A DNA stretch of 64,000 nt, from contig CAVWAG010000004.1 in NCBI GenBank assembly GCA_963752975.1, positions 87,660-151,659 of the forward strand, in the 5' to 3' direction. Source of the stretch: an uncultured Chloroflexia bacterium (lineage in GTDB: Bacteria; Chloroflexota; Dehalococcoidia; GIF9; UBA5629). The notes below the pieces were generated by a model. That model had not been told where the DNA came from. It was given only the letters and a program-made list of their open reading frames with translations, and did not search any database. This document shows, piece by piece, positions 3,814-43,071 of this stretch. The position numbers were made by a program, and so were the translations under genes. Every line of letters starts with the position of its first letter. Within the stretch, counting starts at the first letter, position 1.

Positions 3814-5084
3814 TTATCGTGGCTGGCCCGTATCGGCATCTGCAACATAGTATCTGGAGGCTATTAAGTAGCACCCCCCACCGATTACGCCGAAAGCAGA
3901 GGCGATTATCATTGCCGTGCTCAGCCCAGGAGCGCCGCCACCCATGGCATCGGACATGATACCGACTAAATAAGGCCCCCATGCGCCACCCAGCAGGTAC
4001 TCGAAAAACACGGAAAGCCCGAAAGAGAATCCCTTATGCGCTGCCGGGGCACAGTCCTGCGAGATTGCTCCGAAGGCCGGGACCGCCATTACATTGAGGA
4101 TGCCGTACAGCATGCCCAGGACGATGCCCAGCGGGCTGAAACCGGTCAGGATGGCAGCTATAAGCACGACGGCTGCCGCTGCAAGCGTGATGCCCGGCAG
4201 ATAGACCCTGCCCCGCGGATCATGTTTATGCCACACGTCAGCCAGCCAGCCGCCAAGGGGAGCGCCGATAAGCGCCATCAGACCCATGCCACCGACGATC
4301 AGGCCTGCTGTTGACTCGTTAACTTTTAACACACGCATGATCAAGGCGGGTGCCCAGGACATAAATGTCATGAGCATTATTCCTGCCATACCAAGGGCCA
4401 AAAATGCCAGCGTAGCGTGGGGATTTTAATCAGAGTGGTCAATGAAGTCACAATATCCTTGCTCGTATTTTGAGAAGCGTTGGATTCCTCGACTTTATAG
4501 TCCTTCATGAACAGGGCCAGGATGCCCAGGATTATGCCGGGTATGGCAAAGAAAAAGAAGGGCGAACGCCAGCCCATCTTGACCGAAAGCATCCCGCCGA
4601 ATATGCTGCCAATTGCTGCGCCAAGCGGAACACCCAGGGTGAACAGGCCAAGGACAATCCCCCGCTTTTCCTTAGGATAAGCGCCGGAAACCATGGCCGT
4701 CCCACCGGACGAGAACCCCGCTTCACCCACGCCGACCAGCGCACGGGGGATGATGAGGCTGATAAAGCTCGTAGCAAGGCCCGTGCAATAGGTGAATATG
4801 CTCCATAGTATTGCCATGATCGCTATCGGTTTTTTCCTGCTCCAGCGGTCCATCAGGTAAGAAAAAGGGAATGTGAAGAAGGCTACGCCCAGGATAAAAA
4901 TGGTCTGCAACAGGCCGCAATCCGCATCGGTAAGCCCGAGCTCAATCTTCATCGGCTGCAATACTGCGGAAAACACCTGCCTGTCCATGAAATTAACCAT
5001 ATAAAGCAGTGTGCAGATTACTAATATAAAAGCAGCGCTCCTGCCTCCAGTACTATATGCTTGCTTATCATCGTGTAGGGACAT
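3814..5084 (-). pseudogene. MFS transporter, frameshifted (probably at the A5/T5 run 4400-4404)
   Basis: The 237-aa and 195-aa ORFs overlap at 4377-4401 and together align with the intact paralogues at 20734-22017 and 33549-34847. Adding one T to the T5 run restores a collinear protein of the same length. The ATG at 5084 follows AAGGAGG. Confidence 0.8.
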
Positions 5085-5115
5085 GTGCAATAACCTCCTT
5101 TTATTTACGGCATAT

Positions 5116-6678
5116 TTACTTTGTGGATGTGGATTGCAGAGCGCTCACGTTTGTCTCCGGCGCATGGGCGAGATCAGGCAGATCACCTGTTACCTTCCAG
5201 TCCCGCCTGATCACCCTGCCCGATTTTGAACCAGTTAGCTTGCCCTGTTCTACGGCCACGACCCCGCTCACGATAACGTAGGGGATGCCTCGTGAAGGTA
5301 TGCCTGGCTCGAGGTAGCTAGAACCGTTCATGATCGTCTTCGGGTCTAATATGGTTAGATCTGCATCACAGCCTTCCTGTACACGCCCTTTCTTTTTAAG
5401 GCCGAGCCACACTGCAGCCAGGGTTGAGCACTTGGCCACGCCTGTTATCAGGTCGCATACTCCCATCTCGCGGACCCAGTGACCGAGGAAATGCGAAAAG
5501 GTGCCTGCGCCGCGCGGGTGGCCGCCGTATTTGCCGGTGTTAATATCCCAGTATATAGCATCATCGTTTTCGACCATGGTGAAGGGCGCGGAATAGTAAA
5601 GCCAGATAAATTCCGGTTTATGCAGGTGGAATAGTAGCGTCGGTTCAGCTATCGTACCATCACGTACCCGGTCCCGGACAGCGTAAAACTGTTCAAAGCT
5701 GGAGAACCTTTCATTAGCCTTGATGACGGTTTTTCCGTCGATTACCACCGTAGTGGGGCATTCCAGCTCCGACACGTCCACACCCATCATTTTAGCCAGC
5801 GGTTCCATCGGCTGGTTGAAGAACTCACCGCCGATAATGGCTGTGCCGGCGGTAAATGGCGTCTGGTCGGTTACCACTTTCACGCCGTTATAGCGTGCAG
5901 TGGCGATTAACTCCAGCGCGATGCCTGTGTTCCTGCGTGTAACGATGCTGCCTCCCCTGTGAGAGATGGTTAGCGGTATAGAGGATTCACTGGATATACG
6001 TATGGCTTCCTCCACCGCCTCGATATCCTTGGGTGATGGGCCGGCATCCCTGACGTGTATCGAGGCGCCGCCGCCCAGTTTTTCGGCCTGGGCGGCCACA
6101 GCAGTCATTTCTTCGAACGTTGCTCCCGGTGCATAAAACGGGCCGAAGGACATGCCGACGCCACCTGATTCCAACTCCTGTTTAACAAGGCCCAGCATAT
6201 CCTTCAACTGGGAAGGAGTTGCCGGCTTGTTGGCTTCCTTGGCCCCGGCTGCTTCCCGTATCGTGTTATGCCCGATGAATGAACCGGCGTTGATGATCAG
6301 GCCTTCCTCTTCAATGGTCGTGAAGAAATCCTTGATCGGATAATGCGGCCTGTCTTTGACGCCGGCTATCTCGAAAAAAGTGCCTGATTTGCCGCAGTTG
6401 CCGGTGATTTCTGTAGTGATCCCGTCGCGGACGTGGAACTCTGCGCCTACACCTGTTCCACTGTCATGGCCATGGATATTGATAAACCCGGGCGCTACTA
6501 CCAGCCCCGACGCATCTATTTCCTTTTGACCATGTAGTACCTCGTCTTCAGGTGTAATCTGCTCTATCCTGCCGTTGCGAATGCCGACATTCGCCCTCCC
6601 GTAAAACCTGGTGAGCGGATCTATTACTGTACCCCCGTTAATCGCAATATCGTAAGTATCAGTATTACGTTTTATCAT
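5116..6678 (-). CDS. amidohydrolase, N-acyl-D-amino-acid deacylase (D-aminoacylase) family
   Basis: 520 aa. N-terminal DIAINGGTVIDP...GFINIHGHD (HxH metal motif) and overall D-aminoacylase-like architecture. GGAGGT RBS. Confidence 0.75.
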   Translation of the reverse strand: MIKRNTDTYDIAINGGTVIDPLTRFYGRANVGIRNGRIEQITPEDEVLHGQKEIDASGLVVAPGFINIHGHDSGTGVGAEFHVRDGITTEITGNCGKSGTFFEIAGVKDRPHYPIKDFFTTIEEEGLIINAGSFIGHNTIREAAGAKEANKPATPSQLKDMLGLVKQELESGGVGMSFGPFYAPGATFEEMTAVAAQAEKLGGGASIHVRDAGPSPKDIEAVEEAIRISSESSIPLTISHRGGSIVTRRNTGIALELIATARYNGVKVVTDQTPFTAGTAIIGGEFFNQPMEPLAKMMGVDVSELECPTTVVIDGKTVIKANERFSSFEQFYAVRDRVRDGTIAEPTLLFHLHKPEFIWLYYSAPFTMVENDDAIYWDINTGKYGGHPRGAGTFSHFLGHWVREMGVCDLITGVAKCSTLAAVWLGLKKKGRVQEGCDADLTILDPKTIMNGSSYLEPGIPSRGIPYVIVSGVVAVEQGKLTGSKSGRVIRRDWKVTGDLPDLAHAPETNVSALQSTSTK

Positions 6679-6708
6679 GTTCTATACCTCCGGCTATCGG
6701 ATACGTAC

Positions 6709-7893
6709 TTATTTCACCGTGATGCTGTCAGCCGACTCCGTAACCGTTTCGCGCACCCTGGCGTCCTTGCTCAGTACCTCGAAGAACATGGCGGCGTCCA
6801 GAGCTCCCTCAGGGGCCATAACTCCGGCCGCTTTCACTTTCCCGTCCAGTAAGGCCAGCGCAGCCATTACGGCGGGCAAAGCGGTGCTGTGCGCCACATT
6901 ATTTGCCATCAGATCGTAGGTACGGGTCACCTGCTTATTACCCTTCTGCCCGTTGACAACGATTTTGAATGTCCCGGCACAGGCCTCATATTTGCCCAGC
7001 GCATCCTCGAGTATGTCTTTAAAGTACTCCGGCGCGAAGCGCGGCATCGAACGTATTATCCTTACGGCCAACTGTCTGAAGGGCATCGAGACGCTATCAT
7101 TAACCATGAATTCGTCCATGCTGCCGAAACCCGTATCTATCAGCCAGCGGTAAAGCTCCATCATCTTGGGAGGATAAAGAGCACCCTTGATGCTTACGTT
7201 TTTTACGCCTTTGATATACCTGGGCAGCGAGACCGGCTCAGGGTGACCGGTCAGGACCACTTCCAGCTTCCCAATAGGTGGCAGGAATTCGATAACCTCG
7301 GGCTCGGTGAAGCCCTGCTTCTCAACCCATTTTCCATCGACAAATACAGGTACCTTTTCTGCGGTTATATGGAACCAGTGCATCATAGCCGCCGACCCGG
7401 TCGGGTCGATGGCACTCTCCCCCCAGTACAACCGTATCTCATCCGTCCTGTCCATACGGCTGGCGCCCAGCTTGGCAATCAGGTTGGTAACACCAGGGCT
7501 GGCGCCCATACCGATGATGGCAGCTATACCGGCCTTCCTGGCATCCTCATCCAGTGCCAGGCAATCCTTGGTGGCGTCGAAATCGTCATCTATATCGACA
7601 AGGTTTACCCGTGCATCAATTGCAGCTTTAATCACTCCGGCTGCATATTTGTAGAATGGGCCGACCGTGCTGATAACCACGTCAGCGCCTTTGAGCAGCT
7701 TGACCAGCGACTCCCTGTCGTTCACATCAGCGCTTGCGACTTTGACTTTGTTCCCCATCTCAGCTTCAACGCGTTTCAGGCCCTTGACGCTGGCGTCGGC
7801 TACGGTGATCTCCGCGCTCGTCCTCTCCAGTAGCAGTTTCACCACCTCATGACCCATGGTGCCAGCTCCACCCAATACGATGATTTTTTTCAT
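6709..7893 (-). CDS. saccharopine dehydrogenase family protein (NAD(P)-binding)
   Basis: 394 aa with a MKKIIVLGGAGTMG Rossmann motif. Intact paralogue of 2295-3459. Confidence 0.8.
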   Translation of the reverse strand: MKKIIVLGGAGTMGHEVVKLLLERTSAEITVADASVKGLKRVEAEMGNKVKVASADVNDRESLVKLLKGADVVISTVGPFYKYAAGVIKAAIDARVNLVDIDDDFDATKDCLALDEDARKAGIAAIIGMGASPGVTNLIAKLGASRMDRTDEIRLYWGESAIDPTGSAAMMHWFHITAEKVPVFVDGKWVEKQGFTEPEVIEFLPPIGKLEVVLTGHPEPVSLPRYIKGVKNVSIKGALYPPKMMELYRWLIDTGFGSMDEFMVNDSVSMPFRQLAVRIIRSMPRFAPEYFKDILEDALGKYEACAGTFKIVVNGQKGNKQVTRTYDLMANNVAHSTALPAVMAALALLDGKVKAAGVMAPEGALDAAMFFEVLSKDARVRETVTESADSITVK

Positions 7894-7914
7894 AGTGAAC
7901 TTACCCCCTCTTTC

Positions 7915-9537
7915 TTATTTTGAATCAGCTTTTTTCTTTTTTTCAGCTTCGCGTTTTATCTTTACTCCCGCCTTAACCCTGTCCCACGTTTTATCCGTTA
8001 CCTGTTTCAGTTGCTCCTTAACCGGCCTGCCGCTGCCTCCCGTGCGGGGGATGGCCTCAACGAATTCGATATAACGCGGCACCATGAAATAGGCCATACG
8101 CTCGTCACAATAGGCCACCAGTTCAGCCGGATCGATTTGTTTTCCCTCATGGCAGACGATGGCCAGCTTGACCTCCTCACCCCATACCTCGGAATACGCC
8201 GCCACCGCCGCGCATTCCTTGACGGCCGGATGGGACTCTACCACCTTCTCCACCTCCAATGCCGAAACGTTTTCATCGCCGCGCCTTATCATGTCTTTTT
8301 CACGTCCAACGAAGAAAAAATATCCGTCTTCATCCTGGTAAGCCAGGTCACCCGTGTGCCACCACAGGTTACGGAAGGCTTCCAGTGTCTTCTCCGGCAT
8401 CTTGTAATAGCCCTCGAATATGGTATGCGGCTGCTTTGGCCGCAGTACGATCTCGCCCACCTTGCCCCGGGACACCACCCTGTCCATCGAATCGACGAGC
8501 TTTACATCGAAATAGCCGCGTGGTTTGCCCATTGAGCCCGACCTGATATCCTTATAGGTCGCCGCGATAGAACAATCTCCCTCAGTCAGACCGTATGTGT
8601 TGACCAGTTTCACATTGAAGCGCTTCTCGAACGCTTCCTGGCTCTCCGGCGTGATATGCGCCGTCGAAAAAATGCGCATCGGGTTATCCGCATCGTCCGG
8701 CTGCTCGGGCGCCATCAGCAGGATCTTGATCACTACCTCGAACATCCCGGAGGCAGTGCACTTGTATTTCCTGATGTCCTGCCAGAAATCCGCCGCACTG
8801 AAGCTGCGGGTGAGCACGAAGTTGCCCCCGTAAAGCATGGAACCCAGCACCAGCCCGAATTGCGGCGCCTCGTGGAAAAGCGGTATATAGCAATATCCGG
8901 TGTCGTTTCTCTTGACACCTGTTACGTTCACATACTGGCTGGCCACGAAAAATGCCTGGTTATGCGTTATCAGCACGCCCTTGGACGGGCCGGTTGTCCC
9001 GGAGGTGAACATCAGCGCCATGATATCGTTATATTTGACCTCTGCAGTCTGCAGCTTCCCATCTCCCTCCAGCAGCGCAGCGAACGCTATCGTCTCTATT
9101 TTTTTAAAAGGCTTCCCCTTAAACTGCCCCTCGATAATTATCTTTTTTACGTTGCATATCCGGTCCTCCACCGATCTGATCTCGTCAATGAAGCTGCTGC
9201 TGATGACCAGTATCTCGGCATCCGAGTAATTGATAAGGTATTCAAGGATACTTCCCTTATGGAAAGGATTGAAAGGCGCTTCCACAGCGCCCAGCAAAGC
9301 CAGGCCGAACCACGTGTAAATGAATTCGGGGCAATTTTCCATCAGCATTGCTACGTGGCTGCCTTTCTTCACGCCATGGTTAGCAAAACCACGTGCAACC
9401 CGCCGGGACTGCGCGAGCACATCACCATAGCTATGCGGCCTGCCCTCAAACCAGAAATAGGTATCCTCCGGATGCTTCTGCGCCGCCTCTTCCAGCATCC
9501 TGCCCAGTACGTATTTCTCGCCTGTTACAAATCTCAT
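7915..9537 (-). CDS. AMP-dependent synthetase/ligase (acyl-CoA synthetase family)
   Basis: Contains FTSGTTGPSKGV (AMP-binding P-loop), YGLTE and GDLAYQDEDGYFFFVGREKD motifs. The start is placed at the ATG at 9537 after AAGGAGG; the longer track ORF (to 9684) would overlap the TetR gene. Confidence 0.9.
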   Translation of the reverse strand: MRFVTGEKYVLGRMLEEAAQKHPEDTYFWFEGRPHSYGDVLAQSRRVARGFANHGVKKGSHVAMLMENCPEFIYTWFGLALLGAVEAPFNPFHKGSILEYLINYSDAEILVISSSFIDEIRSVEDRICNVKKIIIEGQFKGKPFKKIETIAFAALLEGDGKLQTAEVKYNDIMALMFTSGTTGPSKGVLITHNQAFFVASQYVNVTGVKRNDTGYCYIPLFHEAPQFGLVLGSMLYGGNFVLTRSFSAADFWQDIRKYKCTASGMFEVVIKILLMAPEQPDDADNPMRIFSTAHITPESQEAFEKRFNVKLVNTYGLTEGDCSIAATYKDIRSGSMGKPRGYFDVKLVDSMDRVVSRGKVGEIVLRPKQPHTIFEGYYKMPEKTLEAFRNLWWHTGDLAYQDEDGYFFFVGREKDMIRRGDENVSALEVEKVVESHPAVKECAAVAAYSEVWGEEVKLAIVCHEGKQIDPAELVAYCDERMAYFMVPRYIEFVEAIPRTGGSGRPVKEQLKQVTDKTWDRVKAGVKIKREAEKKKKADSK

Positions 9538-33548: not shown

Positions 33549-34847
33549 TCAGCATTCGAAAGTTATTTCTCGGCGTAAACTCGTCAGTACATTTGCACTA
33601 TCGCCGGGGTAATATTTGGTTAAAATCAGGTTGGTTACAATTGAGAGCGCGAAAAACGGAAGTGTCCATATCATCCCCCACTGCAACCCTGAAGCCCCTC
33701 CCCCCAAATAGTCAGAGATAGCCCCGACAGCAACAATGCCCAGCGTAGCCCCCAATAGCTGCGCTATCAGACCGGATATGCCTATGGCCGTCGACCTTAA
33801 ACCCGGAGTTATAACATCATTGATAATGGTTAACCCGACCGGCAGGTTTAATCCGACGAAAACTGTCGCCAGGGCAAGCAATACCATAAACAATATAACT
33901 GATTGACCCAGGCTAAAAAATGCTGCGATATAGAAAATAAGGGCCAGGAAGGCTGTCAAAGCCATGAATAACGGCCTCCCGTTTTGATGGCTCTTCTGCC
34001 AGCGATCGGCTATTACGCCGCCCAGTGGAGCAAGCAGTAACATCAGGGCAACCCAGCCGAACTTCTGCCCTGCTTCAGCAGCATCCATATGATAAGCTCG
34101 CATCAGTAGCGCAGGTGTCCACACACTCATAGCTGTCGTGGTACTCAGGAAAAAAATCCCACCGATAGTCGGCATCCAGTATGAAGGGCATTTGAATATC
34201 TTTGACCAATCCTTGAAATATTTTCTGCTCAGCGCCGCCTCGCCCTTTTCCTTGACCGTTTTATAATCGGGCAGAAAATATACAATCGCTGCGAGGATGA
34301 CACCGGGTATGCCGAACACGTAAAACGGCGTACGCCAATCGCCGGTGGAAGTTATCAGCCAGCCGCCCACGATCAGGCCCACAACCATGCCCAGCTGACT
34401 GCAGGCAAAAAATATTGCTATTATAATGGACCTTATATCCTTGCGGAAAGAAACAGAGAGCCAGGCCTGCCCCACCGGAGAATACCCGGCTTCACCTGCA
34501 CCGACCATGAAACGCGCAGCTAACATTTGAACGATATTGGTACAAAATCCCGTCAACAATGTGGCAGCGCTCCAGATCAGGGCCATAACTGCAACGATCT
34601 TGCGCCGTGCCCACCTGTCGCCCAGTACGGCGGCAGGGATCATCATCACAGCTATACCCGCTGTGACCAGGGCCGCCAGGCTGCCGGCCTGCGCATCGTT
34701 CAATTTAAAATATGCCTTAACCGCCTCCAGCGCCACGGTCATGATGGACCGGTCTGCCATATTGATGAGCCAGAGCAAAGACAGTATGACCAGTATGGTA
34801 ATCGCTGAACCCCTGCCAACCTCGTACTTTTTCTCTTCCAAATTCAT
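33549..34847 (-). CDS. MFS transporter
   Basis: 432 aa, multi-TM, with an LGDRWARRKI loop motif. Paralogue of 20734-22017. Confidence 0.85.
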   Translation of the reverse strand: MNLEEKKYEVGRGSAITILVILSLLWLINMADRSIMTVALEAVKAYFKLNDAQAGSLAALVTAGIAVMMIPAAVLGDRWARRKIVAVMALIWSAATLLTGFCTNIVQMLAARFMVGAGEAGYSPVGQAWLSVSFRKDIRSIIIAIFFACSQLGMVVGLIVGGWLITSTGDWRTPFYVFGIPGVILAAIVYFLPDYKTVKEKGEAALSRKYFKDWSKIFKCPSYWMPTIGGIFFLSTTTAMSVWTPALLMRAYHMDAAEAGQKFGWVALMLLLAPLGGVIADRWQKSHQNGRPLFMALTAFLALIFYIAAFFSLGQSVILFMVLLALATVFVGLNLPVGLTIINDVITPGLRSTAIGISGLIAQLLGATLGIVAVGAISDYLGGGASGLQWGMIWTLPFFALSIVTNLILTKYYPGDSANVLTSLRREITFEC

Positions 34848-36498: not shown

Positions 36499-38097
36499 TT
36501 ATTTCAGTTTGCGCAACTCAGCCCTGAGCATTTTACCCAGTACATTCTTGGGTAGAGCGTCGATAAACTGCACCTGCCTGGGAGTTTTAAACTTTGGCAA
36601 TGATTTGCTGCAATACTCGATGATCTCTTGCTCGCTGTACCTTTCCCCCGGCTTAAGTACCACGAAGGCCTTGATCTCCTCTCCATAAACGCGGTCTGCC
36701 ACTCCGACACAGCACGCTTCAGCCACCCCGGGATGGCTGGATAGGACATCCTCGACCTCTTTGGGAGATATGTTTTCGCCGCCTCGTATAATGAGGTCTT
36801 TTTTACGGTCGGTTATATAGAAATAGCCGTCCTCGTCCCTGTGGCCGATATCACCGGTATGCAGCCAGCCTTTCTTGAGGGTCTCCGCTGTCTCTTCCGG
36901 CAGGTTCCAGTACCCTTTCATAACAGCCGCTCCTTTAATCACCAGCTCACCGGTAGCACCGGCCGGCAGTTCACGGTCATTATTATCGAAGACGCTCATC
37001 TTGTTACAGGCCAGCATGTTTATGCCTATTGAGCCATACTTTGGCGGGGCTGATCCCGGGTTGCCTGACGTGGTAGCCCCCGACTCAGTCATGCCCCAAC
37101 CCTCGTCGATGTGCACACCGACCTTCTCCTTCCACTTGAGGCCGACACCCGGATCAAGCGCGGCGGCACCGCAGGCACAGAACTTGAGCGACGACAGGTC
37201 GTATTTATCCAGGTCCGGGTAGTCCAGCAGGTGTACATACATAGTAGGCACAAAGGCAACATAGCCTATTTTCAGCTCCTGTATCAGCCTCAGGGCTTCC
37301 GCCGGGTTCCACCACTTCATCACGGCGAACCTCCCGCCTATCAGGGCGCCGAAGTTCAGGAAAGCGATACCATACGAGTGGGAAAGAGGTAACACTGCCA
37401 GGAACAGTATATTCCGGTTGGACCCGGTCACCATCTGCTCCTCTTCCACCATCCTGTGAGTTTTTTCATCCATCTGCCGTACTATATTACTCACAGTGGT
37501 GGGTGCACAAAGGAACTGGAAATCGGCAAAGCAGACCGCGTTTATCCAGAGCGTGTAATGGGTGTGCATTACACCTTTGGGATTGCCCGTTGTGCCGGAG
37601 GTATAAATCAGGGCTGCCAGGTCGTCATTATCCATGTCCTCGATGCGGCACTCGCCGCTGCTATCCTTTAGCAGCTTGCTGTAATACAGCGTCTCCGGCA
37701 CGTCGGTTTTATCAATGAGCAAGATATGCTTCAGATCAGGGGCATTTTCCTGGGCAGTGCGGACCCAGGGCAGAAAATCCGAGGTGGTGATGGTCACTTT
37801 GGCGCCGCAGTCCTTGTAAATATATGATATCTGGTCAGGTTTGAGTATAGGATTCATCGGGACTATGACTGCACCTATCCTGTAGACTGCGTTGAATGCC
37901 ACAAATATCTCGATACAATTAGGTAATTGCGTAACTACACGGTCGCCCTTCCTTACGCCCAGCGACTTCAAGGCATTGCCGAGGCGGCTGGCCATCCTGT
38001 TCAATTCTGCATTGGTATACCATCTGCCCTCAAAATAGCAGGCTTCGTATTCCCCGAATTTCCGCAACCCGTCTTCATACAAGTTAGCCAGGTTCAT
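36499..38097 (-). CDS. AMP-dependent synthetase/ligase (acyl-CoA synthetase family)
   Basis: 532 aa with YTSGTTGNPKGV, WGMTE, GDIGHRDEDGYFYITDRKKDLI and KNVLGKMLRAELR motifs. Confidence 0.9.
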   Translation of the reverse strand: MNLANLYEDGLRKFGEYEACYFEGRWYTNAELNRMASRLGNALKSLGVRKGDRVVTQLPNCIEIFVAFNAVYRIGAVIVPMNPILKPDQISYIYKDCGAKVTITTSDFLPWVRTAQENAPDLKHILLIDKTDVPETLYYSKLLKDSSGECRIEDMDNDDLAALIYTSGTTGNPKGVMHTHYTLWINAVCFADFQFLCAPTTVSNIVRQMDEKTHRMVEEEQMVTGSNRNILFLAVLPLSHSYGIAFLNFGALIGGRFAVMKWWNPAEALRLIQELKIGYVAFVPTMYVHLLDYPDLDKYDLSSLKFCACGAAALDPGVGLKWKEKVGVHIDEGWGMTESGATTSGNPGSAPPKYGSIGINMLACNKMSVFDNNDRELPAGATGELVIKGAAVMKGYWNLPEETAETLKKGWLHTGDIGHRDEDGYFYITDRKKDLIIRGGENISPKEVEDVLSSHPGVAEACCVGVADRVYGEEIKAFVVLKPGERYSEQEIIEYCSKSLPKFKTPRQVQFIDALPKNVLGKMLRAELRKLK

Positions 38098-38259: not shown

Positions 38260-39033
38260 TTATCCAAGTTCTCTGAGCAGCGGTATTGCCCACCACTGCC
38301 ATACGGGCGCTACGTAGCGCCGTTTGGGTCTCTTATCCTCAACAGCTCTGACAATCTGCCGGGCTATGCTGGCCGTATCCTTCAGCTCTGACCTTATGAT
38401 CATAGACTCCGATTTCTTGATAATGTCCATGTGCCCCTTGTAAAGTACGCTGGAATCTATCCATTCGTATTTCTTGCCTATGTTCTTCTGGTTGAAATCT
38501 GTGTGGTAGCCCCCGGGATTGACCATGACAACGTCGATGCCAAACGGTTTCAACTCTGTGCGCAGAGAAAATGCCACGCTCTCAAGCGCGAACTTCGACA
38601 TACCGTAAGGAGCCAGGAAAGGGGTGGGCATGAGCCCGGCCATTGAGCCGATGAATATGATCCTTCCATTTTGCCTCTCAGCCATTCGGGGAATAAATCT
38701 GCGGGTAAGCTCCAGGGCGCCGAAAACGTTTACGTCCAGGACACGTTTGACCCTCTCAAGGTCAATCTCGGCCAGCGGCCCGGAATCGCCGATCGCGGCA
38801 TTATTTATCAGAACGTCTATGTCCCACTGGCCGGCTTTTTGCCTGTCTGCCGCATCCGTAACATCGATCTTCTCGACAGTCACGTTCGCTTTATTTTCCC
38901 CCAACGCGGCCCTGACGCTCTCAATCGACGCCACATTGTGCACGGTTGCATAGATGGTGTGCCCTCTGGCAGCCAGGCGCCGGGCGGCATCAAGCCCGAT
39001 TCCACCCCTGCATCCGGTTATCAATATTTTCAT
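38260..39033 (-). CDS. SDR family oxidoreductase
   Basis: 257 aa with the TGCRGGIG (TGxxxGxG) and NNAA motifs. Confidence 0.85.
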   Translation of the reverse strand: MKILITGCRGGIGLDAARRLAARGHTIYATVHNVASIESVRAALGENKANVTVEKIDVTDAADRQKAGQWDIDVLINNAAIGDSGPLAEIDLERVKRVLDVNVFGALELTRRFIPRMAERQNGRIIFIGSMAGLMPTPFLAPYGMSKFALESVAFSLRTELKPFGIDVVMVNPGGYHTDFNQKNIGKKYEWIDSSVLYKGHMDIIKKSESMIIRSELKDTASIARQIVRAVEDKRPKRRYVAPVWQWWAIPLLRELG

Positions 39034-39217
39034 GTCATTTTCTCCCTCACTCTTTTTTCTACATCAGCCCGGGATATATGCTCGCGTCTTTCCGCAACCG
39101 GCTCATCATGATAGATAAAAGTCCGAACTCCCGCCGTCTTCGATGGGTTTCTTCAATTATAGTTCGCGCTGTTGTCATTTTCGTAATGTTGTACTAAAAT
39201 GATCTCACGTCAGCATA

Positions 39218-39237
39218 TCGAACATTTGATAGATTAG
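39218..39237 (+). promoter_or_regulatory. conserved 20-nt motif TCGAACATTTGATAGATTAG upstream of the 39313 gene
   Basis: 19/20 (18 contiguous) identical to the reverse complement of 42391-42410. It contains the half-site AACATTTG and a possible -35 (TTGATA) followed 16 nt later by TAAATT. Confidence 0.5.
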
Positions 39238-39312
39238 CAATTCCTCTTAAATTGGTCAAGCGGTTCAGTTGGCTTCATATATGCCCAAATAATTTTCAGG
39301 AGGGCCGTTTAT

Positions 39313-40512
39313 ATGGCGAAGAAAGCGTCGGAGCTAAGCGCAATAGACAGGGAAATTTGCACGAATCTCCTGAAATGGATGTGCACATCGTGGTATAGCC
39401 AGCCCATCACCGACAATTCCATCATGATGATTGCCTACCGCTACACCCCTGAGGAAGCAGACTATCTGACGGGCTTCCCTCTCTCGCCAAAAACAGTCGA
39501 GGAGCTTGCCGGTTTCAAGAATACGGGAATTGACGAACTCACGAAAAAAATTGACGAGATGACCAGGAAAGGTCTGCTGTACAGTTTCACGAAAAATGAC
39601 AAGCGTTATTACCTCTTGAACGAAATCTATACGAGCCTGCGCACGTGGGGATGGCCAGGGCCGGCCGCCACTCCTGAAAACAAAGCTTTCGCCACATTGA
39701 TGGAAAGCTGGGGACCGGAGTTCATGGCACCCTGGGAATACGTCAAAGAGAAGGGACTGCGCGTGATACCCATCCAGCAAACCGTGGAAGATGACAGGCG
39801 GATACTGCCCTATGAAGATGTCAAGAAGATGCTCGATTCTTACACATATTTCTGCGTCACGCATTGTGGCTGCCGCGAGCGAAAAAACCTGGCCGAGCAC
39901 ACTCCCGATTGCAAGTACCCGTCGAGTGTCTGCCTGCACTTTGACCGCCTGGCCCATTACATCGTAGAAAACGGCATGGGGCGGGAGATCACCAGGCAGG
40001 AGGCGGCCGATATACTGCGCCAGTGTGCCGACCTTGGCCTGGTGCACGGCATTAGTAACCAGCAGATGGGCACAGACACGATCTGTAATTGCTGCAGTTG
40101 CTGCTGCATGTGGTTTGATGGGTTACGCCAGCTCAAGAATGGCGGGACCATTAACCCTTCGAACTACCGTATCCATACTGAAGATCTTACATGTACCGGC
40201 TGCGGGCTATGCGTGAAACGCTGCCCCATGGACGCACTGAAACTAAAAGATGCTCCCGATGCAAGGGGTAGAAAAACCATGGTGGCCGGAGAAGGCGGGA
40301 AGGAGAAGTCCCTCATCAATAAAACCGGGAAGCTGGCATCTGCTAACACCAACCTGTGCATCGGCTGCGGCGTTTGCGCCTACAAGTGCCCTTCAAAGTC
40401 GTTGACCCTCGTGCGCAACGAGACCGAGCATCATCCGCCCCAAACCGATCGCGACTGGGTAATCCAGTATGTGACCGACACCGCCGGCTTCCGTCACAGC
40501 GACAATACGTGA
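39313..40512 (+). CDS. 4Fe-4S dicluster domain protein with an additional Cys-rich motif
   Basis: 399 aa with two CxxCxxCxxxCP motifs (CTGCGLCVKRCP, CIGCGVCAYKCP) plus HCGCRERK and CNCCSCCC. Confidence 0.7.
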   Translation: MAKKASELSAIDREICTNLLKWMCTSWYSQPITDNSIMMIAYRYTPEEADYLTGFPLSPKTVEELAGFKNTGIDELTKKIDEMTRKGLLYSFTKNDKRYYLLNEIYTSLRTWGWPGPAATPENKAFATLMESWGPEFMAPWEYVKEKGLRVIPIQQTVEDDRRILPYEDVKKMLDSYTYFCVTHCGCRERKNLAEHTPDCKYPSSVCLHFDRLAHYIVENGMGREITRQEAADILRQCADLGLVHGISNQQMGTDTICNCCSCCCMWFDGLRQLKNGGTINPSNYRIHTEDLTCTGCGLCVKRCPMDALKLKDAPDARGRKTMVAGEGGKEKSLINKTGKLASANTNLCIGCGVCAYKCPSKSLTLVRNETEHHPPQTDRDWVIQYVTDTAGFRHSDNT

Positions 40513-40610
40513 TGCATACCTCGGAATAGGACTGCTTGTTAAAAATATGCCTGACGGAGATGGTTTGGGAAACATCCGGTAATAAAACAAAGATACAGAT
40601 AAAGGAGTAA

Positions 40611-40760
40611 ATGATGGCATCAAAATGCGCAACTTGCCCGATGAAGAAGAAAGCCGAGGAGAATCCACAGGCGATCATGAGTAAGATCTGGAAATGGCAT
40701 ACCACCTGGTGCCCGGGATGGAAGGCCTACCAGAAGGAACTGGCCAAAAACGCAAAATAA
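40611..40760 (+). CDS. 49-aa Cys-containing small protein (hypothetical)
   Basis: Not in the supplied track. AAAGGAG RBS. Sequence MMASKCATCPMKKKAEENPQAIMSKIWKWHTTWCPGWKAYQKELAKNAK (CxxC plus WCPGW). Confidence 0.4.
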   Translation: MMASKCATCPMKKKAEENPQAIMSKIWKWHTTWCPGWKAYQKELAKNAK

Positions 40761-40811
40761 GAGTAGCCAAACTTAATCGAAAGCAACGGTAACTCAATAG
40801 ACAGGAGGTGC

Positions 40812-41282
40812 ATGATGAAATTCGTGCCTCTTTTACCTGAAACACAAAATGATTACAAGGGGCATAAAGCAATAATAGTTGTTGCTGCATTGCTTGCTCT
40901 TGTGGCAACTGTCCGTTCTTTGATTCACATATTCTTGCCTGATGGTGGTTCTAATGCGATAGCCGGTCTGGCAATTCCGGGGGATGCCAACAGCGCAGTC
41001 ATCTTCACTTTTGCCTGGACCGGGCTATATCAATTGCTGTTTGCAATCATACTGTGGATCGTTTTAATTCGCTACAGGGCTTTGATTCCTTTAATGATCC
41101 TCTTGCTGTTTTTTGAAGAACTCGGTTTATTCCTCATACCCATATTCAAACCCATTGCATCAAGCTTGTTAACACGAACTCCGCCAGAGGTAATAGGGAA
41201 TAAGGTGTTGCTGCCACTGACACTGATACTATTCTTCGTATCCCTAATTCCTGCACCTGAGCGTAAGAGCAAAGCAGCCTGA
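40812..41282 (+). CDS. hypothetical membrane protein (about 4 TM)
   Basis: 156 aa with hydrophobic segments and an AGGAGGTG RBS. No family recognised. Confidence 0.55.
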   Translation: MMKFVPLLPETQNDYKGHKAIIVVAALLALVATVRSLIHIFLPDGGSNAIAGLAIPGDANSAVIFTFAWTGLYQLLFAIILWIVLIRYRALIPLMILLLFFEELGLFLIPIFKPIASSLLTRTPPEVIGNKVLLPLTLILFFVSLIPAPERKSKAA

Positions 41283-41372
41283 TAGAGGTCCATCAAATGC
41301 TGTGGGCAGACCGATACCATAGGTGCGGATGAATTCGAAGGTAACTTTTATCCCACTCTCCCCGCATTATTG

Positions 41373-42269
41373 CTATAATGGTGTGCGCTCAATGAACTTC
41401 ATTATCTGTTCCGCTACCTCCTCGCCCTTATCTTCCTGCAGGAAGTGCCCGGCATCCTTTATGGTTATTTCGGGCTGATCCTTGGCTGTAGGGATGATGT
41501 GGCGGAAGAATCCGTCCCCACCTGCTGTGACCGGGTCCTTATCGGAGAACATCACCAGCACCGGCTTTTGCCAGGTCTTCAAGATATTTCTGGCATCGTT
41601 CATGATCGCGGCGCCCGGGTCATCACGGCTTATGGGTACCAGCAAAGGCCATTTCGCGGCACCGGCCATGTATTTTTCATCGGGGAAAGGCGCGTAATAC
41701 GCCGCCTTGATTTCAGGCGCTAATTTCTGGGCAAATCCCATACTAAACGAGATATCCAGCAGTTTCTTCGGCTCTTTCTCGCCCATCTTGTCAGCCGCCG
41801 CCCTCCACTGCATAAAAGCGTCGGGAACATTATCGCCGTTGGGCAGGCCGGTATTCATGATCACCAGCCTGACAAAGCGGTCTTTCAAGATAGTGGCAAC
41901 GGGCAACCCGATAAGCCCGCCCCAGTCCTGGCATACCAGTGTAATATTGCGCAGGTCCAGCTTCTCTATGAAGCTCTTCAACGTCTCGAAATGCATTTTA
42001 ACGGAGTATTCATCCCGCTCCGTATATTTATCCGACTTTCCAAAGCCTACGAAGTCCATGGCAACCGCCCTGTGCTTCTTTACAAAGATGTTGATCATCT
42101 TGCGATACAGGTATGACCATGACGGCTCACCGTGGGCACACAAAATGGGGTCGCCTTTACCCTCATCCACATAGTGGATCCGCATCCCCTTTATATCCAT
42201 GTAATGCGGCTTGTATGGATAGCCCGGTAAATTGGTAAACCTTTCGTCCGGTGTCCTGATGACTGGCAT
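41373..42269 (-). CDS. haloalkane dehalogenase, HLD-I / DhlA-like (alpha/beta hydrolase)
   Basis: 298 aa from the ATG at 42269 (AGGAGGT RBS). It matches Xanthobacter DhlA segments recalled from memory: IRTPDERF.NL, HGEPSWSYLYRKMI, GFGKSDK, LDLRNITLVCQDWGG, DAGHF. Confidence 0.8.
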   Translation of the reverse strand: MPVIRTPDERFTNLPGYPYKPHYMDIKGMRIHYVDEGKGDPILCAHGEPSWSYLYRKMINIFVKKHRAVAMDFVGFGKSDKYTERDEYSVKMHFETLKSFIEKLDLRNITLVCQDWGGLIGLPVATILKDRFVRLVIMNTGLPNGDNVPDAFMQWRAAADKMGEKEPKKLLDISFSMGFAQKLAPEIKAAYYAPFPDEKYMAGAAKWPLLVPISRDDPGAAIMNDARNILKTWQKPVLVMFSDKDPVTAGGDGFFRHIIPTAKDQPEITIKDAGHFLQEDKGEEVAEQIMKFIERTPL

Positions 42270-42390
42270 GTTACCTCCTATCCTGTGAGTTAATTTTTCG
42301 CCGGCCCTGCGGGATGAACTGGACCATCCTGTCCATACCACAGATTTTTCACTGCTTTATACTTGCATTTGACTAAATTTTATAAATAGT

Positions 42391-42423
42391 CTAATCTATC
42401 AAATGTTCAATATCTAACATTTG
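42391..42423. promoter_or_regulatory. candidate operator: perfect inverted repeat CAAATGTT-N8-AACATTTG overlapping the conserved 20-nt motif
   Basis: IR at 42400-42423, with motif 42391-42410 matching 39218-39237 in reverse complement. It lies in the dehalogenase/TetR divergent region. Possible TTGACT (42369-42374)-17 nt-TAATCT (42392-42397) promoter. Confidence 0.5.
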
Positions 42424-42441
42424 TTCGATGATAGTAACATT

Positions 42442-43071
42442 ATGAAAACCGGATTGTCAACTGTAAGAACGTTTAGCCCGAATAACGGCCTGGTTGAGGA
42501 GAGGCGCCGACAGATCATCCAGGCGGCTTTCCGTCTTATTGCCGCCAGGGGCATTCAGAAAACCAGCATCAGGGAAATCGCCGCTGCCAGTGAAATGACC
42601 ATCGGCAACCTCTATCACTACATCGGAACACGCGAGGATATTATTTTCCTGGCTATTAACTACGGCCTGGACCAGGTCCGCAAATTGATCAAGGAAATAA
42701 ATGATCTGTGTGAAACCCTTGAGCCGAGGGAAGCGCTCAAGGCTGCTATAGACCGCTACATGAGGTATCACCACGCCAATTGGGAAGGCACCGTTTTTCT
42801 TTATAAAGAGATGGGCAGTTTTTCACCATCCTTGCGCTTGCCTGTGATCGAAGTGAATTCACACATGCACGATGTGTTCATCCGCATCCTGAAGAAGGGT
42901 TGCAAGACCGGTGTGTTTGCAGTAACCGATATTGAGCTGGTGGCCAGCACGATTGTTTCCATGGGTGATATGTGGGCGTTAAAACGCTGGCAATTTAAAA
43001 AGAACTACACGCTGGACAGGTATATAGACAGCTTTACTCAAATGATTCTGGCGTTAATTAGCTGTACTTAA
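42442..43071 (+). CDS. TetR/AcrR family transcriptional regulator
   Basis: HTH signature IIQAAFRLIAARGIQKTSIREIAAASEMTIGNLYHYIGTREDII. The ATG at 42442 is preferred over the TTG at 42421, but the start is uncertain. Confidence 0.85.
   Translation: MKTGLSTVRTFSPNNGLVEERRRQIIQAAFRLIAARGIQKTSIREIAAASEMTIGNLYHYIGTREDIIFLAINYGLDQVRKLIKEINDLCETLEPREALKAAIDRYMRYHHANWEGTVFLYKEMGSFSPSLRLPVIEVNSHMHDVFIRILKKGCKTGVFAVTDIELVASTIVSMGDMWALKRWQFKKNYTLDRYIDSFTQMILALISCT

Follow-up and report, generated by a model that had tools for sequence, protein, structure and literature searches.

A predicted TetR-family operator fused to a −10 box in two paralogous promoter modules of a dehalogenase gene island from an uncultured Dehalococcoidia bacterium

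A short inverted repeat occurs only twice in the assembly

Which regulator, and which genes, are tied together by a short sequence that stands in two promoter regions about 3 kb apart in the genome of an uncultured Dehalococcoidia bacterium? The locus lies in a 64,000-nt stretch of contig CAVWAG010000004.1 (assembly GCA_963752975.1), which was analysed as a whole; we call it the window and use its numbering throughout. One copy of the sequence, at site A, lies upstream of a gene for a 4Fe-4S protein. The other, at site B, lies between divergent genes for a haloalkane dehalogenase (dhlA) and a TetR-family protein (tetR1, encoding TetR1). An initial sequence-only reading had proposed that this TetR protein acts at both regions through a shared 18-nt motif, and had considered a chance match very unlikely. 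Our analyses indicate that the repeat is probably the operator of a TetR-family repressor plus a −10 box, placed in two paralogous bidirectional ("face-to-face") promoter modules.

The 18-mer GAACATTTGATAGATTAG occupies positions 39220-39237 of the plus strand, and its exact reverse complement is found at 42391-42408. The match is longer than first noted: the arms extend to 23 nt in inverted orientation (39215-39237 versus 42391-42413) and are identical at 22 of 23 positions. When up to three mismatches were allowed, only these two copies were found in the window, and 100 dinucleotide shuffles of the window contained a mean of 0.05 matches, with two or more in none of the 100. The same two copies were the only ones in the whole assembly (2.19 Mb in 18 contigs, 75% complete), and the repeat is therefore not dispersed, as the initial reading had allowed it might be. 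Both regions are AT-rich promoter DNA, a setting that favors coincidental similarity. However, the shuffles and the whole-assembly search exclude chance for practical purposes, and the motif is kept in at least nine genomes; a coincidental match thus merits almost no weight.

The repeat resolves into a −10 box and an 18-bp imperfect dyad

At both sites the repeat combines the −10 box TAATCT with an imperfect dyad of 18 bp, ATCKAACAWWTGTTMGAT, whose half-site is ATCKAWCAW (coordinates in Table 1). Site A has one dyad and site B has two that abut, units B1 and B2. Between 6 and 7 of the 9 half-site positions are paired, and the units overlap the conserved −10 box. The complete module reads, in order, a −35 box TTGAC(T/C), a 17-nt spacer, the −10 box TAATCT, the dyad or dyads, and then the −10 and −35 boxes of a promoter on the opposite strand, the latter −35 falling in the first codons of a tetR gene. 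The distance between the opposing −10 boxes, which enclose the dyad or dyads, is 30 nt at site A and 33 nt at site B.

Four predicted promoters are arranged around these dyads, and transcription is predicted to begin near 39207 (+) and 39224 (−) at site A and near 42404 (+) and 42424 (−) at site B. At site B, the −10 box of the rightward tetR1 promoter overlaps unit B1 by 4 nt; both of its hexamers are invariant in all 10 aligned modules, and its spacer varies. The leftward promoter toward dhlA abuts unit B2, scored 10/12 in a consensus scan with a TG extension, and has its −35 box within codons 5-6 of tetR1; TGTCAA and TAnnAT are kept across orthologues, synonymous positions included. At site A, the leftward promoter has the same TTGAC(T/C)-N17-TAATCT architecture as the tetR1 promoter and is kept in the related genome G010 and in metagenome contigs. 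Its −10 box overlaps the operator by 4 nt, and it points at a short-chain dehydrogenase/reductase (SDR) gene (39033 downward). The iron-sulfur (Fe-S) operon on the other side would be served not by this TAATCT promoter but by the opposite-strand promoter of the module, which is kept in five genomes and in metagenome contigs; relative to its inferred transcription start, the operator would lie at about +10 to +27. An alternative rightward promoter at site A, TTGATA-16-TAAATT (39226-39253, 9/12), may also exist.

The sequence-only reading had seen promoter-like hexamers within the motif, and the motif does overlap conserved −10 and −35 boxes. Its choice of operator was not upheld. The inverted repeat CAAATGTT-N8-AACATTTG at 42400-42423, which it had singled out at site B, is present, but it comprises the inner halves of the abutting B1 and B2 units, and the supposed N8 spacer is the junction between them. 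We rejected this register: site A and the relative G001 hold one full unit only, and the outer TCGAT/ATC bases are conserved. Likewise, site A, which had been thought to keep a single half-site, carries one full 18-bp unit. An RNA element in the leaders was also rejected, as no Rfam family matched them better than E 0.94.

The proposed repressor, TetR1, has both domains expected of the family. Its N-terminal helix-turn-helix (residues 25-68) scored 39.6 bits against PF00440 (cutoff 24) and its C-terminal ligand/dimerisation domain scored 50 bits against PF17932 (TetR_C_24, cutoff 26.4); it also matches solved TetR proteins over its full length. No other protein in the assembly has the GNLYHY helix of TetR1, and the recognition helix MT(I/V)GNLYHY(I/V)GTRED is invariant in seven TetR1 orthologues. 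The tetR1 and dhlA genes diverge across a gap of 172 bp, an arrangement of regulator and target that is classic for the TetR family.

The module is conserved beside tetR in related genomes

We searched 60 related genomes for tetR orthologues and added two more, MFD148 and MFD168, from named metagenome-assembled genome (MAG) records. Orthologues 77-97% identical to tetR1 were found in 6 of the 60, the next-best matches being at most 41% identical. The orthologues compared were those of G014, G024, G001, G011, G006, G029, MFD148 and MFD168, together with a truncated locus in G010. Dyads lie directly upstream of tetR in all eight orthologue loci, and TTGACT-N17-TAATCT is kept with them before tetR in each of these close relatives; the sequence-only reading had suggested such a comparison as a check. 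In the alignment, TTGACT, TAATCT, the dyads, TAnnAT and the in-codon TGTCAA are conserved; the 17-nt spacer, the flanks and the upstream sequence drift. Among G003, G010, G011 and G014, the site A unit varies only at its final base (T or C), and its flanks drift. The motif TAATCTATCAAATGTTCGAT, with up to two mismatches, occurs in 9 of 61 related genomes and always in front of tetR or between the divergent SDR and Fe-S genes; in this survey the G010 tetR gene is cut by the contig end, and G003 is represented by its site A contig only.

A test that started from the SDR gene, and was thus unbiased with respect to the motif, found orthologues in eight genomes, every one of them downstream of an operator module (8/8). 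SDR stands directly behind a site A module in five (G000, G003, G010, G011 and G014) and in the gene row divergent from tetR in three (G001, G006 and G029). The first gene after the module differs among relatives, being dhlA, the Fe-S gene or a small cysteine (Cys)-containing gene, and MFD168 (locus L056) has a single module from which genes for an Fe-S-like protein, DhlA, the small Cys protein, SDR and the ligase run leftward in one row, divergently from tetR. Therefore, these genes behave as one regulatory unit across lineages. A homologue of the Fe-S gene (57-66% identical) is directly divergent from the tetR1 orthologue in G029, MFD168, L062 and L067. Downstream of the regulator, a gene for an RdhA-like protein follows the tetR1 orthologue in 8/8 relatives checked, after a gap of ~30-120 nt (homologues in L023-L028, L055 and L056), and it is the most constant partner of tetR.

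Site A is the predicted promoter of a lost tetR paralogue

A metagenome scan by exact motif, a procedure biased toward the recovery of conserved operators, returned 29 contigs. About 14 of these have the TTGAC(T/A)-N17 context together with island genes, and on two short contigs (L068 and L084) the promoter context is found but matched genes are few or absent. About 13 were discarded as chance hits in AT-rich DNA, having neither promoter context nor island genes. In L060, L071 and L075 (Ga0247842_10144426), an intact second regulator gene, tetR2, stands behind a site A-type module and ahead of the SDR and ligase genes. TetR2 is a protein of ~218 amino acids (aa) that is 56% identical to TetR1 over 204 aa (56-57% among contigs) and has the same recognition helix as TetR1, MTIGNLYHYIG. 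Other tetR paralogues stand behind the same −10 box and operator: one 61-64% identical in L066 and L080, followed in the same operon by a 65-66% identical Fe-S homologue, and one 69% identical in L085, heading an RdhA-like gene. The operator was present upstream of every tetR orthologue and paralogue found.

In the window, site A precedes a remnant of tetR2. The remnant has its ATG at 39178 on the minus strand, contains a 1-nt frameshift and ends at 39059, with ~555 nt missing up to the ribosome-binding site of SDR. From the −35 box to about codon 38, this region is identical to L075 at 168 of 207 nt, and tblastn detected the remnant independently (39146-39066, 63% identity over 27 aa, E 3.5e-4). 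Intact tetR2 is absent from the 75%-complete assembly, and the 60 related genomes yielded no tetR2 above 41% identity. The Fe-S-side flank of site A and the 5′ flank of tetR1 at site B are identical at 37 of 50 positions (74%); the score of this alignment is 13.5, versus 3.35 ± 1.73 in shuffles, and was reached by none of 6000 random genomic windows. Because site A precedes a tetR2 remnant, and because tetR2 is intact in metagenome relatives and shares the recognition helix, sites A and B are, as judged from their sequences, paralogous self-regulated tetR promoters. A simple inverted duplication of the tetR1 promoter had been considered and was refined to this interpretation once intact tetR2 genes had been found downstream of site A-type modules in metagenome contigs. 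The remnant offers a clear snapshot of regulon rewiring upon loss of a paralogous repressor.

The loss of tetR2 raises the question of whether site A is merely the dead promoter and operator of the deleted gene, an unused scar, such that only site B works and there is no shared regulon. The remnant that follows site A, and the single and less symmetric dyad there, are what a scar might leave. However, the −35 box, −10 box and dyad are near-invariant in the tetR2-less G000, G003, G010, G011, G014, L073, L074 and L077-L079, in which the adjacent remnant and the 16 nt beside the dyad diverge or are deleted further. The other tetR2-less genomes retain still shorter remnants beside an unchanged module, which argues that the module is still under selection and hence, presumably, still bound. 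The core identity of 22/23, compared with 74% in the flank, likewise speaks against a scar, as does the finding that no other obvious promoter for the SDR operon lies between the remnant and the SDR start codon. We consider a scar improbable.

TetR1 is predicted to repress four units from two sites

Because the recognition helix is common to TetR1 and TetR2 and the operator at site A is intact, TetR1 is predicted to act at both sites, with one dimer on site A and two dimers on site B. Each dyad would overlap the −10 box and start of a TAATCT promoter and would sit on, or a little downstream of, the start of the promoter facing it, and bound dimers would most likely occlude the −10/start regions of all four promoters until released by ligand. 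Site B, with its two dyads, would control tetR1 and the RdhA-like gene to the right and dhlA to the left. Site A, with one dyad, would originally have controlled the self-regulated tetR2, SDR and acyl-coenzyme A (acyl-CoA) ligase genes to the left and the Fe-S, small Cys and membrane protein genes to the right. With tetR2 lost, four units would most likely fall under repression by TetR1: its own gene together with the RdhA-like gene, and possibly others beyond; dhlA; the three genes for the Fe-S, small Cys and membrane proteins; and pseudo-tetR2, SDR, acyl-CoA ligase and the genes that follow. A local TetR operator common to both promoter regions, as initially proposed, thus withstood all in silico tests, and these also support co-regulation of tetR1, the dehalogenase gene and the genes at 39313-41282. 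The scope of that proposal was too small, because the −10 box of site A points left at the SDR/acyl-CoA ligase operon; the SDR/ligase unit is accordingly added to the predicted regulon, which also takes in the RdhA-like gene behind tetR1.

A different regulator might bind the dyad instead. A tetR2 gene could lie in the 25% of the genome that the assembly lacks, or the Fe-S protein could bind through its N-terminal part; one Joint Genome Institute (JGI) name for a homologue of the Fe-S protein reads "predicted transcriptional regulator". Nevertheless, the operator is kept in G001 and G006, whose fetched loci show no Fe-S gene, each copy with promoter context adjoins a tetR homologue or remnant, and the lack of any tetR2 above 41% identity among the 60 relatives also bears against this idea, which we regard as quite improbable.

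Several points weigh against action of TetR1 at both sites. The dyad of site A is less symmetric than that of B2, with 6/9 versus 7/9 half-site pairs, and an operator located downstream of the start, as at the rightward promoter of site A, is a weaker geometry for repression. Promoter-like sites are no commoner than in shuffles (5 versus 6.2), the hexamers being consensus matches only; we accepted the predicted hexamers because they are conserved in relatives. A symmetrised weight matrix gave the three units 23.6-28.3 bits in a genome scan, high scores that are circular, as the matrix was built from these units themselves. The metagenome contigs carry the recovery bias stated above, and the missing part of the 75%-complete assembly could hold an intact tetR2 or further operator sites. 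Finally, the case for binding, repression and transcription starts is made from sequence, by way of the observed anatomy, uniqueness, conservation, linkage to tetR and pseudogene.

The next-best site in the weight-matrix scan scored 18.9 bits, which is at the level of the shuffled-genome maxima (17.7-19.3 bits). Within the assembled 75% of the genome, the predicted regulon is confined to two loci, sites A and B. Three candidates with shuffle-level scores were dropped: C10:163494, which lies in a coding frame; C4:122177 (window position 34518), within a gene for an MFS transporter; and C17:3796. The last of these, the weakly dyad-like ATTTATCATCTGATAGAT, makes up the loop of a GC-rich hairpin (GCGGGCAGC...CTGCCCGTGC) that precedes a gene for a family III CoA-transferase-like protein by ~100 nt.

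Comparison with described regulators

The nearest described analogue in logic is MbdR, the TetR-family repressor of the anaerobic 3-methylbenzoate cluster of Azoarcus sp. CIB (PMC4424350). MbdR recognizes an 18-bp dyad that spans the −10/start region and recurs at four promoters of this cluster, its own and that of the CoA ligase included. It is a repressor that a pathway intermediate releases, and both its binding and its inducer, 3-methylbenzoyl-CoA, were shown experimentally (PMC4424350). Similarly, we propose from sequence an 18-bp dyad over the −10/start region that is repeated at several promoters of one cluster. The two systems differ in operator (ATAC-N10-GTAT for MbdR, ATCKAACAWWTGTTMGAT here), in phylum and in pathway, and the present system is known from sequence alone.

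The archetypes of the arrangement are TetR/tetO of Tn10 and QacR/IR1 of Staphylococcus, in which regulator and target genes diverge from promoters that overlap, with dyads between or across these promoters; one site may have tandem operators or take up two dimers. The divergent target, the overlapping promoters and the tandem units of site B follow this pattern. In contrast to the archetypes, the predicted targets here are catabolic and redox enzymes rather than an efflux pump, and a second, distant site derives from a lost paralogue. The proposed mechanism is textbook and the arrangement standard for the TetR family.

Among proteins of known structure, the best matches to TetR1 are 3vpr, 5k7f (AibR), KstR2 (4w97) and FadR (5gp9, 3whb and 3ang), with E values from 3e-17 to ~3e-5 over both domains. 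The top match (E 3.1e-17) is 3vpr, PfmR of Thermus. The similarity to these proteins is modest, and the NCBIfam (Bacillus) FadR model scored 46 bits versus a cutoff of 200. The predicted regulon contains an AMP-forming CoA ligase. Because the best structural matches are acyl-CoA sensors and the regulon includes a CoA ligase, we guess, by analogy, that the inducer may be an acyl-CoA, or else a halogenated or hydrophobic pathway intermediate, a suggestion that is speculative but not far-fetched. The operator itself does not follow this relationship: ATCKAACAWWTGTTMGAT appears unlike the PaaR/PfmR box, which is of the type ACCGACCGGTCGGT.

A tetR-family gene beside a haloalkane dehalogenase gene has a reported counterpart in Rhodococcus, where the gene for DhaR, a TetR-type regulator reported by Poelarends and colleagues in 2000, reportedly adjoins the dehalogenase gene dhaA, with inducible expression. 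That enzyme belongs to HLD-II and to an aerobic actinomycete, whereas the enzyme encoded here belongs to HLD-I, and we know of no DhaR operator that matches ATCKAACAWWTGTTMGAT. A literature search of partial coverage found no description of the present operator or regulon and nothing relevant on a haloalkane dehalogenase combined with a TetR operator.

A tentative scenario for the origin of the regulon is fusion by paralogue loss, which we think possible but rather doubtful: tetR2 would have been deleted while its promoter and operator were kept, leaving a supercluster of SDR, CoA ligase and RdhA-like genes, together with the Fe-S operon, under the single sensor TetR1. In relatives with two TetR paralogues, each would head its own operon, the two presumably sensing different ligands and cross-talking on each other's operators. 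If this scenario were true, one ligand would control an anaerobic programme of hydrolytic (DhlA) and putative reductive (RdhA-like) dehalogenation, and the ~100-bp unit of promoter, operator and tetR start would be a copyable module that recruits cargo genes between its copies. More generally, the proposed co-regulated unit would join a DhlA-type dehalogenase with uncharacterised RdhA/QueG-like Fe-S enzymes, a large uncharacterised family of 4Fe-4S proteins, the 49-aa Cys peptide and an operon for CoA activation, and the ligand of the TetR protein would then indicate the substrate of the whole island and aid function assignment. To our knowledge, few regulators have been characterised in Dehalococcoidia; ATCKAACAWWTGTTMGAT and its predicted cognate repressor provide a testable pair for an uncultured lineage of this class from freshwater, peat and soil.

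Genes of the island and their rearrangement in relatives

The genes and regulatory features discussed above are listed in Table 1. Profile matches bear out the initial gene calls for the TetR protein at 42442, the haloalkane dehalogenase and the 4Fe-4S protein at 39313.

Table 1. Positions of the predicted regulatory features and the genes of the island in the window
Feature	Position	Strand	Description
Site A operator unit	39217-39234		ATCGAACATTTGATAGAT; 18-bp imperfect dyad, conserved in relatives
Site B operator	42394-42429		B1 ATCTATCAAATGTTCAAT (42394-42411) and B2 ATCTAACATTTGTTCGAT (42412-42429)
Predicted tetR1 promoter	42369-42397	+	TTGACT 42369-42374, 17-nt spacer, TAATCT 42392-42397
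Predicted site B leftward promoter, toward dhlA	42431-42460	−	TTGACA 42460-42455, 18-nt spacer, TACTAT 42436-42431
Predicted site A leftward promoter (former tetR2 promoter)	39231-39259	−	TTGACC 39259-39254, 17-nt spacer, TAATCT 39236-39231
Predicted site A rightward promoter, toward Fe-S operon	39172-39200	+	TTGTCA-17-TAAAAT, consensus scan 10/12
Pseudo-tetR2 remnant	39059-39178	−	Start codon and 39 codons, frameshift, rest deleted
TetR1, proposed repressor	42442-43071	+	PF00440 and PF17932 (TetR_C_24)
RdhA/QueG-like Fe-S protein, 471 aa	43101-44516	+	30 nt after tetR1; weak TIGR02486 and TIGR00276 matches
HLD-I (DhlA-type) haloalkane dehalogenase, dhlA	41373-42269	−	NF002043, 360.6 bits (cutoff 265)
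4Fe-4S dicluster protein, 399 aa	39313-40512	+	Large uncharacterised family
Small Cys-containing gene, 49 codons	40611-40760	+	72-98% identical translated copies in relatives
Membrane protein, 156 aa	40812-41282	+	No family match
SDR, first intact gene of leftward operon	38260-39033	−	Pfam adh_short
Acyl-CoA ligase	36499-38097		Pfam AMP-binding; after SDR in leftward operon, further genes beyond

The 399-aa Fe-S protein has 2389 homologues, all with generic names only. Homologues of the membrane protein, 74-84% identical, are found in G011 and in metagenome contigs. The 49-codon Cys open reading frame is a real conserved gene, with copies in L023 (1067-1207), L025 (8467-8610), L056 (3604-3747) and L074 (428-571 and 1186-1278, on opposite strands); its position varies among relatives, where it follows dhlA or precedes SDR or the membrane protein gene.

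The 23-nt repeats are inverted and flank accessory genes, and the gene order between the modules differs among relatives, so the arms could in principle bound a 3.2-kb segment (39215-42413) that moves or inverts, and serve as recombination substrates. The enclosed genes (Fe-S, small open reading frame, membrane protein and dehalogenase) include no transposase or recombinase, however. The genome holds two arms only, with no flanking target duplication or direct repeat, and relatives with a single module keep the motif before tetR. Only in G011 do both sites share a contig with this gene arrangement, and there the orientation matches that of the window; no orientation variants of the segment were seen among the relatives compared. 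We therefore judge a mobile or invertible segment very improbable, and prefer to read the arms as parts of two promoter modules.

The region between the paralogous modules is a rearrangement hotspot. Gene content and orientation there (39238-42390 in the window) differ in almost every relative (L079 6187-10447, L074, L076 and L056): the Fe-S gene is present or absent, the small Cys and membrane protein genes are flipped, and L079 holds a fragment of dhlA.

The tetR loci of individual relatives show further variation. In G011 (L024), the Fe-S, RdhA-like and DhlA proteins are 97, 98 and 94% identical to those of the window and TetR (6094-6720) only 83%, with the recognition helix unchanged; this suggests that the regulator has either evolved faster or had its allele replaced through recombination. 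The tetR operon is extended by a second SDR copy (78%) in G029 (L026, 7114-7875) and by a second RdhA-like paralogue (52-53%) in L079 (2050-3420). In MFD148 (CAWJIA010000022.1), tetR diverges from a short gene fragment that resembles a DUF169-type N-terminus (L055 5545-5796), and the second dyad is degenerate (ATATGACATTGATTCGAT). In MFD168 (L056), the Fe-S-like (4706-5874) and RdhA-like (6687-8092) regions each match in two frames (split tblastn matches), and are either frameshift pseudogenes or the product of sequencing errors.

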